Assembly (NCBI GenBank): GCA_963798845.1
Contig: CAWCUS010000002.1
Coordinates: 640,001-704,000 of the forward strand
Reading direction: 5' to 3'
Source: an uncultured Gemmatimonadales bacterium
Lineage (GTDB): Bacteria; Gemmatimonadota; Gemmatimonadetes; Longimicrobiales; RSA9
Length of the DNA: 64,000 nt
A program made the position numbers and the translations under genes. The notes below the pieces were generated by a model. It saw only the letters and a list, made by a program, of their open reading frames with translations, was not told the origin of the DNA and made no database searches. Every line of letters starts with the position of its first letter. Within the stretch, counting starts at the first letter, position 1. Below, piece by piece: positions 2,052-7,106 of this stretch.

Positions 2052-2825
2052 ATGGCGATGAACCGTGGTGGAAGATGCAAGTCGTGCGCCCGGCGGACGG
2101 CCCGGAGTGCGGTCCTGGCCGGGATCGCCGCCCTCGCCGCCGCCTCCGCGGGGTGTGGCGCGCGAGGACGCTCCGGGGAACAGCCGGTCCCGGACAGCTA
2201 CGCGTTCCCGGGGATCACGGGGCGCCGGTGCGACCACACGGACTCCAGGGTCCAGGACCTCGCGTTCAGTGACATCGCGCGCCCGGGGACCGCGGGGAGC
2301 ATAGCGCTCTGGGGGCTCGGGTCCGCGCCGGCGGATACGGTGGTGGTTTCCGTGCGATACACCGGGGACGGCGAGCTCGACTGGGTCCAGCTGCTGTCGT
2401 CCAACGTGCCGACGGTGAACGCGGCGGAGCTCCTGCGCCTCCTCCGGGCCGCGCTCGTGGAGCGCTGGCGGGAGGGCGCGGGCGTTCGGCTCCGCATGGT
2501 GGGCGGGCATGTGGATGCGATCCTCCCGTCGGTCGTGTGCGAGGCGTACCCCGTACGGCGGCTCCCCGGAGTCCGGCGCCCCTTGCTTACCAGCCGGGAG
2601 TACCTGGAGTACCTGGAGGCGCGCGGACAGCGCTTCGACGTGCTGATCCGCCTCGACGACCAGGGGCGCGTGATGGACGTTCAGCTGCCGCAGCCGACCG
2701 GCTATCACGCGATCGACCAGTACCTGGTCGAGTATCCACGCGACTGGGAGTACGAGCCCCGCCTCCATGACGGCATCCCGGTGGCGACCACGCTGAGGCT
2801 CAGCATCCGCGTCGGCGGCCACTGA
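2052..2825 (+). CDS. Putative lipoprotein with TonB C-terminal-like domain
   Basis: Signal peptide with lipobox-like ASAGC; C-terminal VLIRLDDQGRV...TGYHAID...WEYEP..DGIPV resembles TonB_C. Confidence 0.6.
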   Translation: MAMNRGGRCKSCARRTARSAVLAGIAALAAASAGCGARGRSGEQPVPDSYAFPGITGRRCDHTDSRVQDLAFSDIARPGTAGSIALWGLGSAPADTVVVSVRYTGDGELDWVQLLSSNVPTVNAAELLRLLRAALVERWREGAGVRLRMVGGHVDAILPSVVCEAYPVRRLPGVRRPLLTSREYLEYLEARGQRFDVLIRLDDQGRVMDVQLPQPTGYHAIDQYLVEYPRDWEYEPRLHDGIPVATTLRLSIRVGGH

Positions 2826-2902
2826 GCACCGGGCGCCCTGCCACCCTTCACATCCGTGCCGGCGCTTGATCCCGGGCGCCATTTCCGCGACCATCCAGGG
2901 CT

Positions 2903-4495
<1,593 letters not shown>

Positions 4496-4571
4496 TCGGC
4501 GCGCGGGGTCTGGCGCCCGCTCGCTCGCGCGCGGCTCGCTCCCACCGACTGCCGTCCCCTATATTGACGGG

Positions 4572-4934
4572 ATGGAAGGGAGACACCTGCTCAAGAGCCT
4601 GAAGGACGACGGCTGGTACCTCGGGGATACGGACGGCGCCTGCCGCCAGTACGTTCACGCCGAGCGTGACGGGGTGGTCACCGTCTGGGTGGGCCACACG
4701 CATGAGCTCGGCGCGCGGGCCGCCGACGGGGCAAGGGCGCGGGCGGAAGGCACGGCCCCGCCCTCGGATCCCGACGCGGACGCCACGGTCGTCGTCGAGG
4801 CCACTCGCAACGGCTTCTCCGCCCACGCCGAGGCGTTCCCCGGCTGCGTCGCCACCGGCGAGACGGAGATCGAAGCCCGCGAGCGGCTGCAAACCGCGCT
4901 CTCGCTGCACCGCGCCGGACTCCGCTCCCGGTGA
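4572..4934 (+). CDS. HicA-like / HicB-like fusion protein
   Basis: N-half LKDDGWY..GxxRQYVH...GVVTV is HicA-like; C-half VVVE..GFSA...FPGCVATGET..EA is HicB N-domain-like. Confidence 0.7.
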   Translation: MEGRHLLKSLKDDGWYLGDTDGACRQYVHAERDGVVTVWVGHTHELGARAADGARARAEGTAPPSDPDADATVVVEATRNGFSAHAEAFPGCVATGETEIEARERLQTALSLHRAGLRSR

Positions 4935-5449
4935 GGATCGTCGCCGGGGAGTGGGCGGGGACGGACCTCACGTCCCCGGGTGGCCGCGTGCGCCCCACGG
5001 CCGAAGAAGTGCGCGACCGCTGGATTCGACTCCTGGAGCCCGACCTCCCGGGAGCCCGGGCGCTGGAGCTCTACGCCGGCACGGGGGCCGTGGGGCTGGA
5101 GGCGCTGTCGCGAGGAGCGGCGAGCGTGGACTTCGTCGAGAACAACCCGGCCACGCTGCACGCGCTGAAGGCGAACATCGCCACGGTCCGGGCTACGCCG
5201 CGGACGCGGGTCTTCACGCGCGACGCGCTCCGCTTCGCCTTCATCCTTTCACCCCGCTCCTACGACCTGGCCCTGGCCGACCCCCCGTACGGCTCGAGGC
5301 AGACCGATCGGCTGGTGGAGCGCTGGCTGGACGTGCCGTTCGCGTCCGTGCTGGCGGTGGAGCACGCCGCCGAGCACCACCTCCCGGGCTCCGCCGAGCG
5401 TCATCGGGTGGGTGACGCCACGATCAGCGTGTACAGGAGGGGAGAATGA
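4931..5449 (+). CDS. rsmD: 16S rRNA m2G966 methyltransferase (RsmD family)
   Basis: MRIVAGEW.G, RPT, LELYAGTGAVGLEALSRGA, DPPY. Confidence 0.88.
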   Translation: MRIVAGEWAGTDLTSPGGRVRPTAEEVRDRWIRLLEPDLPGARALELYAGTGAVGLEALSRGAASVDFVENNPATLHALKANIATVRATPRTRVFTRDALRFAFILSPRSYDLALADPPYGSRQTDRLVERWLDVPFASVLAVEHAAEHHLPGSAERHRVGDATISVYRRGE

Positions 5450-6255
5450 GCGCCGGAGATCCGGGCGAGGCGTCCCGCTGGATCGCGTTCACGCGGGCGG
5501 TCGGGCCGCGGCTGGTGGAATGCGAGCTGACGCACCTGGCCCGGGCGCCGATCGACGTCGAGCGGGCGGCGGCCCAGCACGAGGCGTACGAGGCGGCGCT
5601 TCGCGGCCTCGGCTGCCAGGTCGTGCGGCTCCCCGACCTTCCGGACCACCCGGACGGCGTCTTCGTCGAGGACGTTGCCGTGGTGCTGGACGGTGTGGCG
5701 GTGGTCACGCGCCCCGGCGCGGCGTCCCGCCGCGGCGAGGTGGTCGGGATGGCGGAGATGCTGCGGCCGCACCGGCCGGTCCGCTGCATCGAAGAGCCAG
5801 CGCGCCTCGACGGCGGCGACGTGCTGGTTGCGGGGAAGCGCGTTTTCGTCGGCGCGTCCGCGCGCACCGACCTCGAGGGCGCACGGCAGCTCGCGGCCAT
5901 TCTGGAACCGCTGGGCTACCAGGTGCGGCGCGTCACCGTGCGGGGCTGTCTGCACCTGAAGACCGCGGTGACGGCCGTGGCGGACGGGGTGCTGGTGCTG
6001 AACCCCGCGTGGGTGGAGCGGGGGGCGTTCCCGGGCTTCGACACGATCCCTGTGGCCGAGCGCGAGCCGCTGGCCGCCAACGTGCTCCGGATCGGCGACG
6101 CAGTGCTGGTTCCCGCCGCGCATCCCCGTACGGCCGAACGCATTGCCGCGGCGGGTGTATCCAATCAGGTTGCATTGGACGTATCGGAACTCGCGAAGGC
6201 GGAGGCGGGGGTGACGTGCTGCAGCCTCGTGCTCCGCACGGAGGTGCCAGAATGA
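5446..6255 (+). CDS. Dimethylarginine dimethylaminohydrolase (DDAH) family
   Basis: ELTH, PDGVFVED, SRRGE, LDGGDVL, LHLKT and C-terminal GVTCCS catalytic Cys. Confidence 0.9.
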   Translation: MSAGDPGEASRWIAFTRAVGPRLVECELTHLARAPIDVERAAAQHEAYEAALRGLGCQVVRLPDLPDHPDGVFVEDVAVVLDGVAVVTRPGAASRRGEVVGMAEMLRPHRPVRCIEEPARLDGGDVLVAGKRVFVGASARTDLEGARQLAAILEPLGYQVRRVTVRGCLHLKTAVTAVADGVLVLNPAWVERGAFPGFDTIPVAEREPLAANVLRIGDAVLVPAAHPRTAERIAAAGVSNQVALDVSELAKAEAGVTCCSLVLRTEVPE

Positions 6256-6422
6256 AGCGAAGCCTCGTCGTGGCCATGGCGCTCGTGCTCGGTGCGGGAT
6301 TCACGGCATGCAAGTCCTCGACGGGCCCCGACCGGGATCCGACGCCGAAGCAGGACCAGGATCCCGGGGGCGGGAAGGCGCCGCTGGTCGGGATGGTGCT
6401 CCTGGCGCCGCCCGTCGCCTGA
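6252..6422 (+). CDS. Small lipoprotein (56 aa)
   Basis: MKRSLVVAMALVLGAGFTAC lipobox; ATGA overlap with the DDAH stop; GGAGGT RBS. Confidence 0.65.
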   Translation: MKRSLVVAMALVLGAGFTACKSSTGPDRDPTPKQDQDPGGGKAPLVGMVLLAPPVA

Positions 6423-6428
6423 AGAAGG

Positions 6429-6707
6429 GTGAAAGCCACGGCTGAAGTCCAGGTCATTCCCATCGGAGCGGGCGTGTCCGTGCGCCGCGAGGTGAAGCGC
6501 GCGCACCAGGTCCTCGTCGACTCCGGGCTCCACGTGGAGCTGCACGCCAACGGCACCAACATGGAGGGCGAGCTGGGCGACGTCCTGGACGCGATCCGGC
6601 GGGTGCACGAGACGCTGCACGCGGAGGGCACGGCGAGGATCGCGACGTTCGTGAAGCTGGGGACGCGCACGGACAAGGAGCCGTCCCTCGGCGGCAAGCT
6701 GTTCTAG
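6429..6707 (+). CDS. Thiamine-binding protein (MTH1187/YkoF-like family)
   Basis: AEVQVIPIGAGVSV...LHANGTNMEGE...KLGTRTDK. Confidence 0.85.
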   Translation: MKATAEVQVIPIGAGVSVRREVKRAHQVLVDSGLHVELHANGTNMEGELGDVLDAIRRVHETLHAEGTARIATFVKLGTRTDKEPSLGGKLF

Positions 6708-6755
6708 GGCCCGCTCGATCCCATCCCGGGAGCGGGCCGCAGCGCCGGAGGAAAC

Positions 6756-7106
6756 GTGATCGGATTCATGATGTTCATCTTCACGATCGTGGCCGGGGTC
6801 CTGGTGCTCGTCCGGGGACTCCAGTGGATCGGTCGCAGCCCCCGGTCGCTGGAGCCGCCGCGGGACGGCGGCCAGGGACGCGCCGAGCTGGAGCGCATCG
6901 AGGGCGCGCTCACGCGCCTCGAGGCCCGCGTGGACGACCTGCAGGACCAGCAGCGGTTCCTGGAGCGCCTGCTCGCCCGCCGGCAGGAAGACCCGGCGCT
7001 CCCGCCAGCCGCGCCCCGCGAACACCGGCCGTCCGCCGAAGCGACGGAAGGCGAGGCGGCTCCCTCGTCGAAGCCCGACAGCATCCTGTTCGACATCGGG
7101 GAGTAG
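6756..7106 (+). CDS. Hypothetical single-TM protein with coiled coil
   Basis: N-terminal hydrophobic helix, then ELERIEGALTRLEARVDDLQDQQRFLERLL; GGAGG RBS. Confidence 0.7.
   Translation: MIGFMMFIFTIVAGVLVLVRGLQWIGRSPRSLEPPRDGGQGRAELERIEGALTRLEARVDDLQDQQRFLERLLARRQEDPALPPAAPREHRPSAEATEGEAAPSSKPDSILFDIGE

Follow-up and report, generated by a model that had tools for sequence, protein, structure and literature searches.

Among toxin–antitoxin (TA) modules of the HicAB type, those in which both partners share a single chain have been assigned to class 11 (HicA, HicB, then a DNA-binding domain), class 12 (a small HicB, then HicA) and class 13 (Gerdes 2024, mBio 15:e03293-23). Specifically, the class 11 proteins of that survey carry a HicA domain, an RNase-H-like HicB domain and a C-terminal ribbon–helix–helix (RHH) or helix–turn–helix (HTH), and seven natural examples of class 12 are described in the legend of its Fig. 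S12. The model offered there for fused HicAB proteins is that of CapRel(SJ46) and EzeT, single-chain toxin–antitoxins with a cis-acting antitoxin domain. Class 1 comprises hicAB modules in which hicA precedes a small hicB of 67–97 amino acids (aa) without a DNA-binding domain. A chain that runs from HicA into a small HicB and has no DNA-binding domain is not among the 14 classes as the survey sets them out, and the string 'Gemmatimon' occurs twice in its Table S1, in one class 3 hicAB row and in one phylum-abbreviation row counting two TAs. Our literature search brought up no paper describing a HicAB lineage that is domesticated or lacks the His. Here we describe such a chain, encoded in a 64,000-nucleotide (nt) stretch of DNA (the window, to which all coordinates refer unless otherwise labelled) from a Gemmatimonadota genome, G000. 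The gene is a hicA–hicB-like fusion downstream of prfC, which encodes peptide chain release factor 3 (RF3), and its HicA half lacks the catalytic His of HicA toxins. We consider it reasonably probable that this gene descends from a compact hicA–hicB pair of separate genes and now encodes a disarmed single chain, fixed in the chromosome and kept for a predicted binding role.

The HicA and HicB identity of the two halves is evident at the level of the protein family and not from the window protein alone. Taken singly, the window protein scores under the gathering cut-offs of both HicA_toxin PF07927 (17.3 bits, E 0.0053, cut-off 27) and UPF0150 PF21748 (20.8 bits, cut-off 27.3), and it has no match in NCBIfam. 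A sequence-only reading of the window, which had recognized the gene as a fusion of HicA-like and HicB-like halves, called for full-length fused homologues to be sought; a word-indexed search of 5.8 billion proteins yielded 37 of them, 114–137 aa long, 49–100% identical and apparently all from Gemmatimonadota. At E ≤ 0.01, PF07927 is matched by 33 of the 37 (best 1e-7), PF15919 (HicB_lk_antitox) by 16 and PF21748 by 14. Searched against the PDB, the profile built from the alignment of these homologues (A1) recovers B. pseudomallei HicA (4c26, E 8.4e-4; 6g26, E 2.2e-3) together with Y. pestis HicB3 (4p78, E 7.4e-3). AlphaFold2 run on A1 agrees, giving a chain of α-β-β-β-α (residues 3–59) followed by β-β-β-α (73–119) with pLDDT 95.8, pTM 0.87 and pLDDT above 90 on 114 of 120 residues, in which the HicA half has the α-β-β-β-α fold of the HicA family, resembling the dsRBD (the domain that binds double-stranded RNA). 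Foldseek E-values were weak (best 0.019, none ≤0.001), and the nearest ESM Atlas clusters, with HicA_toxin and HicB_lk_antitox on about 90% of members, scored 0.85, below the 0.9 line, and serve as leads only.

With respect to the catalytic residue, the register was set by the PDB alignment to 4c26 and 6g26, which places toxin residue 24 on family position 24. The toxicity of B. pseudomallei HicA is reported to be abolished by H24A and by G22C and not by S23A (PMC3969222), and the equivalent His is needed in the HicA toxins of Y. pestis, S. pneumoniae and E. coli and lies buried under HicB in complexes (PMC11594946, PMC6159526). In A1, position 24 is Ser in 20 sequences, Cys in 17 and His in none (n = 37). 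Around it, D19 and T20 are invariant, G22 is present in 36 of the 37 and Ala23 in 31; residue 19 is Ala or Asn in two further metagenome loci. Canonical two-gene hicA–hicB modules of the same order (L007 and L010) read R-T-R/K-G-S-H-R-Q-Y/F-x-H-P across this region, which marks R25, Q26, Y27 and H29 as ordinary HicA features and D19, A23 and S/C24 as the changes. The window protein itself reads D19-T20-D21-G22-A23-C24, so that the acidic residues remarked on before G22 in the sequence-only reading are confirmed against the R-T-R/K of canonical relatives. That reading had also put Cys in place of the catalytic His: the loss of His holds for all 37 proteins, and Cys24 itself is not conserved. 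Given Ser or Cys at this position in the fused family and Val or Ile in the split lineage described below, a redox or nucleophilic role for Cys24, and with it the redox module that had been suggested, is unlikely.

The HicA half has also lost the charge typical of HicA toxins. Computed net charge, which is not a surface map, averages −1.6 over residues 1–59 (range −6 to +2), with a mean isoelectric point (pI) of 5.4 for the whole protein; three canonical HicAs, taken from the same order or genome, have +7, +8 and +9 and pI 10.7–11.7. A half that is acidic to neutral rather than basic weakens the RNA-binding module that had been considered as another possibility. The HicB half, for its part, ends 7 residues past the conserved His113 and lacks the GxPxPxP segment and the fourth strand of 72-aa canonical HicBs; the HicB hallmarks are kept, namely the PGC motif and an acidic residue opening the helix, with E99 in 33 of 37. 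T95 and E99 may correspond to the Thr33/Glu47 clamp of S. pneumoniae HicB (5yrz), a structure that the sequence search did not recover. The protein stops at residue 120, and neither it nor its family has a DNA-binding Pfam match, which bears out the absence of a DNA-binding tail noted from the sequence. The linker is 7–21 residues long across the family, acidic, Pro/Ala-rich and poorly conserved, and the HicA half is the better conserved of the two. Source annotations of some homologues read HicB family antitoxin, YcfA/HicA-like (mRNA interferase), both, or hypothetical; naming the fused proteins toxins or antitoxins is probably wrong.

A sister lineage retains the same locus as two genes, at L015 and L016, from Gemmatimonadetes and Longimicrobiales metagenome-assembled genomes. 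Its 62-aa HicA-like gene product matches HicA_toxin at 19.3 bits, with 56 of 58 profile positions aligned, and the 13 protein clusters of this form have Val or Ile at position 24 without exception. In L016 a 64-aa HicB-like product passes PF15919 (37.8 bits vs 27), and its gene overlaps the HicA-like gene at the stop and start codons; in L015 the HicB-like part follows the HicA-like part in a different reading frame. A quick tree of the HicA half (60 columns, 60 rows, an author-chosen outgroup of 10 canonical sequences, low resolution) sets fused and split forms apart from canonical HicAs (SH-aLRT 100); the fused forms lie together to one side of a branch (88), as do the split forms (86). This arrangement is consistent with one His loss and one fusion. 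The simplest reading of these sequences is that His was lost once, before one fusion or, less likely, one fission. The existence of relatives with two separate intact genes had been named in advance as a finding that would count against a domesticated fusion. L015 and L016 do have two genes, yet their HicA is already His-less, and for this reason they do not contradict it.

Nor is the gene a decayed or mis-assembled one-off, the other concern raised at the outset. The 37 fused homologues, together with eight distinct fused loci (G000, G001, G021, G005, L013, L020, L021 and L022, beside two split loci) in which no frameshifts or stops were found, rule this out. Moreover, 24 columns are invariant across the 37 sequences at about 55% identity. 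The ratio of nonsynonymous to synonymous substitution rates (dN/dS) between the window gene and its same-genus orthologue (L001 vs L002) is 0.10 for the HicA half and 0.15 for the HicB half, and four more distant pairs give 0.28–0.36, with dS overall at about 0.5–1.3. Linker dN/dS reaches 0.8–1.6 in distant pairs, and a variable linker between constrained domains is as expected of a folded, selected protein. As judged by these comparisons, the fused gene is under purifying selection.

These data bear on whether the gene might be a functionless remnant, that is, a dead TA pair as yet undeleted whose fusion was a neutral accident. The gene is dispensable in the sense that most genomes of the family were not found to have it, no function can be named for it, and neutral-looking independent fusions of canonical hicAB occur in the phylum (G351 and G260), along with singleton fused forms in metagenomes. 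Against this stand dN/dS values of 0.13–0.36 with both domains constrained, the invariant columns, the contrast between linker and domains, and 50 intact sequences in two lineages, and we regard a remnant as very doubtful.

The locus itself is stable on its upstream side. As the sequence-only reading had observed for the window, the gene follows prfC, and this order recurs on the same strand at all eight loci with enough flank (seven fused loci and L016; L015 and L022 are cut), with gaps of 15 nt in G021, 76 nt in the window and up to 0.7–1.5 kb where other genes intervene. Those intervening genes include a DUF4442 (thioesterase-like) gene in L016 (3473–3994 of that locus) and a putative exported protein and a methyltransferase in L021. 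The downstream side varies: the next gene is rsmD at three fused loci, DDAH-like at three, Thiamine_BP at one and a methyltransferase at one. The prfC–rsmD synteny proposed as a check is thus found in its prfC part and in only three of eight fused loci in its rsmD part; likewise the GTGA overlap with rsmD, on which a coupling had been based, is present in the window and local to part of the family, and an obligatory coupling to rsmD was rejected on this ground. A methyltransferase-like gene, putatively S-adenosylmethionine-dependent and with an HHYDELDPFYR motif, lies directly upstream of the fused gene in L021 (896–1744 of that locus) and downstream of it in L020 (3170–4216), which points to local shuffling around a stable fused gene.

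In terms of distribution, prfC was found in 21 of 41 close relatives (E ≤ 1e-100), or 19 of 36 high-quality genomes, and several one-contig genomes of one family (f2) are without it, which makes prfC an accessory gene in its own right in this order. The fused gene is present in only 4 of the 41, those with PrfC at least 81% identical, and in none of the 15 prfC loci (16 including the unpublished G016) that have PrfC at most 72% identical and a downstream flank of 0.5 kb or more; G019, with PrfC at 76%, is cut at a contig end. These tallies include the unpublished genomes G020 and G016, and no specific conclusion rests on either. In a phylum-wide sample of 401 genomes, only G000 and G005 have orthologues (E ~1e-51). 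The base composition of the fused gene (GC 0.73; GC at third codon positions, GC3, 0.88) is like that of the neighbouring genes. Whereas a mobile, patchy, horizontally spread distribution is criterion 3 for TA modules (Makarova 2009, PMC2701414), this gene occupies one locus downstream of prfC, in one sub-clade and with host-like GC3. No PADLOC family matches the window protein, and membership of a known defence system was rejected for it on that basis.

A working TA or defence unit must nonetheless be weighed. In such a unit, the His-less HicA half would be harmful through stoichiometric binding of RNA or ribosomes or through other residues, and the fused HicB half would auto-inhibit it until the toxin is set free, for instance by a phage protein or by proteolytic cleavage in the linker or in the antitoxin half. 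This mode has been proposed for fused HicAB (Gerdes 2024) and shown for CapRel(SJ46), and addiction would likewise hold both halves under purifying selection; the better conservation of the HicA half, the retention of the canonical R25, Q26, Y27 and H29 and a long, variable and probably exposed linker would all suit it. On the other side, none of the 50 sequences has the one residue on which four HicA toxins have been shown to depend, net charge indicates that the basic surface has been lost, there is no DNA-binding domain for autoregulation, and neither the single locus in one sub-clade with host-like GC3, unlike mobile TA or defence genes, nor the PADLOC result points to such a unit. Taken together, these observations make an auto-inhibited toxin quite improbable.

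The presence of canonical HicAB systems nearby raises another alternative, namely a decoy or anti-addiction antitoxin, in which the HicB half would neutralise active HicAs from the genome, plasmids or phages while the dead HicA half acts as a stabiliser that the real toxin displaces. Candidate targets do exist: the same genome has a canonical hicB–hicA pair, L017 (HicA at G000:C2:552227-552397, 63–65 bits, above the Pfam cut-off, basic, pI 11.7), and a weak second HicA-like match, L018 (G000:C2:6268-6417, 21.7 bits), hicAB modules of the canonical two-gene kind are common across the order, and the fused HicB half keeps its hallmark residues. That half is, however, occupied in cis at very high local concentration and no longer has the stretch which in canonical HicBs follows helix 1, and the nearby canonical HicAs have a HicB of their own. 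In addition, the family-specific Arg103 and Arg105 and the acidic partner residue at position 19 suggest an interface re-tuned to the dead partner. We find a decoy role unlikely.

On the explanation that we favour, a disarmed single-chain descendant kept for binding, the ancestor would have been a compact hicA–hicB pair with a small HicB lacking a DNA-binding domain. As the alignments show, HicA in this lineage is without its catalytic His and has given up most of its positive charge; to judge from the split and fused forms, the two genes probably merged in one of its branches into one frame encoding a HicA-like domain, a short acidic linker and a HicB-like domain cut to β-β-β-α. The substitution ratios and gene order attest that the product has been kept by purifying selection, in a Gemmatimonadota sub-clade and at a single locus downstream of prfC. 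The chain may fold back as an intramolecular copy of the toxin–antitoxin complex, with residue 24 (Ser or Cys) buried at the HicA/HicB interface: the high pTM of the predicted two-domain chain supports a fixed domain arrangement, and docking in cis is inferred from established HicAB structures. A chain closed in this manner, and missing both His and charge, would be neither an RNase nor a toxin. The suggestion of a domesticated, non-toxic fusion, which was the best part of the sequence-only reading, fits the purifying selection, the fixed chromosomal site and the missing His, and we retain it in this qualified form.

What selection may be keeping is a composite surface formed by the invariant R4, K8, K11 and D12 of helix 1, R25, Y27 and H29 of strand 2 and R103, R105 and H113 of the HicB helix. 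Through this surface, the protein would serve as a small acidic module that binds a partner in the cell, either a protein or a specific RNA; its acidic charge renders generic RNA binding less likely and speaks for partnership with a protein or for a highly specific contact with RNA. With prfC upstream and rsmD coupled in this genus, the translation machinery is the first candidate, through a weak link, and against this link stands the equal possibility that a narrow clade has inherited the prfC/rsmD arrangement as gene order. A stronger version, which we put forward as distinctly speculative and improbable, is that the HicA′–HicB′ heterodimer was exapted whole, as two genes and then as one chain, to become a non-enzymatic translation accessory factor in this sub-clade, with putative binding of RF3, RsmD, the 30S subunit or a specific RNA through R4/K8/K11/R25/H29/R103/R105. 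If that exaptation were true, this would be a first case of a housekeeping role taken on by a HicAB complex and not by a lone domain, be it toxin or antitoxin.

TA modules tend to be viewed as selfish or defensive elements that are either active or in decay. The fused lineage represents a third outcome, in which His and charge are lost and the halves are retained together under purifying selection, initially in separate genes and later in a single chain, at a stable site on the chromosome. Should a function be found, it would show a possible use for a neutralised HicA–HicB complex, and the protein would offer a natural, predictedly non-toxic single-chain scaffold for studies of the HicA/HicB interface.

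The features of the window gene and its neighbours are collected in Table 1. The rsmD-family protein reaches 94.9 bits on TIGR00095, under the cut-off of 117.5. The GTG start of rsmD (4931–4933) overlaps the TGA of the fused gene (4932–4934) as GTGA, and the ATG of the DDAH-like gene overlaps the rsmD TGA as ATGA, so that the fused gene, rsmD and the DDAH/arginine-deiminase-like gene (4931–6255 for the latter two) form a chain with 4-nt overlaps. These overlaps suggest a translationally coupled string behind prfC.

Table 1. Features of the fused gene and its surroundings in the window
Feature	Coordinates	Strand	Details
Fused hicA-hicB-like gene	4572..4934	+	ATG start, 120 codons + TGA; 37 full-length homologues, dN/dS 0.13 (same-genus orthologue), GC3 0.884
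HicA-like dsRBD-fold domain, residues 1-59	4572..4748	+	α1 3-12, β1 15-21, β2 24-29, β3 35-39, α2 48-59; net charge −2
Codon 24, TGC (Cys), at the catalytic-His position of HicA toxins	4641..4643	+	Alignment to 4c26/6g26
Linker, residues 60-72, GTAPPSDPDADAT	4749..4787	+	
Truncated HicB-like domain, residues 73-120	4788..4931	+	β 73-78, β 81-86, β 92-96, α 99-119
prfC (peptide chain release factor 3)	2903..4495	+	NCBIfam NF001964 E 1e-223, TIGR00503 E 3.4e-209
prfC–fused gene spacer, 76 nt	4496..4571	+	
rsmD (16S rRNA m2G966 methyltransferase family)	4931..5449	+	PF03602 E 1.5e-29, aligned from residue 1
Arginine-deiminase/DDAH-like amidinotransferase-fold gene	5446..6255	+	PF02274 E 9.6e-10
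Thiamine_BP (YkoF-like) gene, same syntenic block	6429..6707	+	PF01910 E 1.6e-24

No terminator-like or sigma-70-like site was found in the prfC spacer, a consensus promoter scan of 2600–6800 returned no promoter-like sites, and a structured RNA in the spacer was rejected, its fold being no better than that of shuffled sequences (z 0.76). A look for expression listed no RNA data set containing the sequence; one DNA metagenome run contained 0.23 of the sampled words. A TATATT motif (4560–4565) ends 6 nt before the ATG in G000 and 7 nt before it in G001, without a Shine–Dalgarno sequence between, a spacing that could reflect a leaderless transcript in this genus. As a general trait this was rejected, the motif being confined to G000 and G001; GGAG or AGGA stands at its position in some of the other loci. 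Upstream of prfC, on the minus strand, is a cold-shock-domain gene (1596–1800), which occupies the 3′ end of a long open reading frame of 432 aa that is itself spurious; L015, L016 and G001 also have a homologue of it close to the fused or split gene. In L016, a 118-aa putative membrane protein (4380–4736 of that locus) begins right at the hicB-like stop.

In comparison with known systems, one of the closest is class 1 hicAB, of which L007 and L010 are canonical examples in the same order. The fused family shares with it the order of genes and domains, a small HicB without a DNA-binding domain, and the motifs DGW, RQY.HP and VTV in HicA and PDLPGC.A.G and EA...H in HicB, and class 1 is likely to be the ancestor type of the fused gene. 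It differs from class 1 in being one polypeptide, in the replacement of His by Ser or Cys, in the loss of R19 and R21, in a charge of about −2 as against +7 to +9, in a HicB reduced to β-β-β-α and in a locus that is fixed rather than mobile. With class 11 the window protein has in common a monocistronic gene and a HicA domain N-terminal to HicB, and it departs from that class in ending 7 residues after His113 without a C-terminal RHH or HTH. It resembles class 12 as a small single chain of about 120–130 aa with one HicB and one HicA domain and no DNA-binding domain, and the order is reversed, with HicA (1–59) preceding HicB (73–120). CapRel(SJ46) and EzeT keep an active toxin domain, whereas the window protein is without the catalytic residue and has no sequence relationship to them. 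The best PDB sequence match, 4c26, is the laboratory-made, non-toxic H24A form of B. pseudomallei HicA, which has the same fold; the residue mutated there is the one naturally replaced in the fused family, but 4c26 is a stand-alone, highly basic protein and the window protein is acidic and fused to its antitoxin.

Single chains of the same architecture that retain His are also found. An exhaustive profile search gave 2,242 matches at ≤1e-3, 43 at ≤1e-10 and 1 at ≤1e-30, among them many other 120–150-aa proteins spanning both domains, most with G-S-H. Two of the His-bearing forms are in-frame fusions of HicA and small HicB in other Gemmatimonadota, L050 (G351:C1:2566816-2567157, from a one-contig genome) and L051 (G260:C11:71176-71511), whose close relatives (L007 and L047–L049) have the same module as two genes, so that fusion of class 1 hicAB evidently recurs. 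These proteins and their metagenomic counterparts (P0042, P0051, P0053, P0056, P0062 and others) likewise lack a DNA-binding domain, but the His, the basic residues and an untruncated HicB tail are all retained in them, and they are singletons beside two-gene relatives rather than a conserved clade. Fusion itself is thus not new, and what distinguishes the family described here is the combination of His loss, charge loss, HicB truncation and long retention at one locus.
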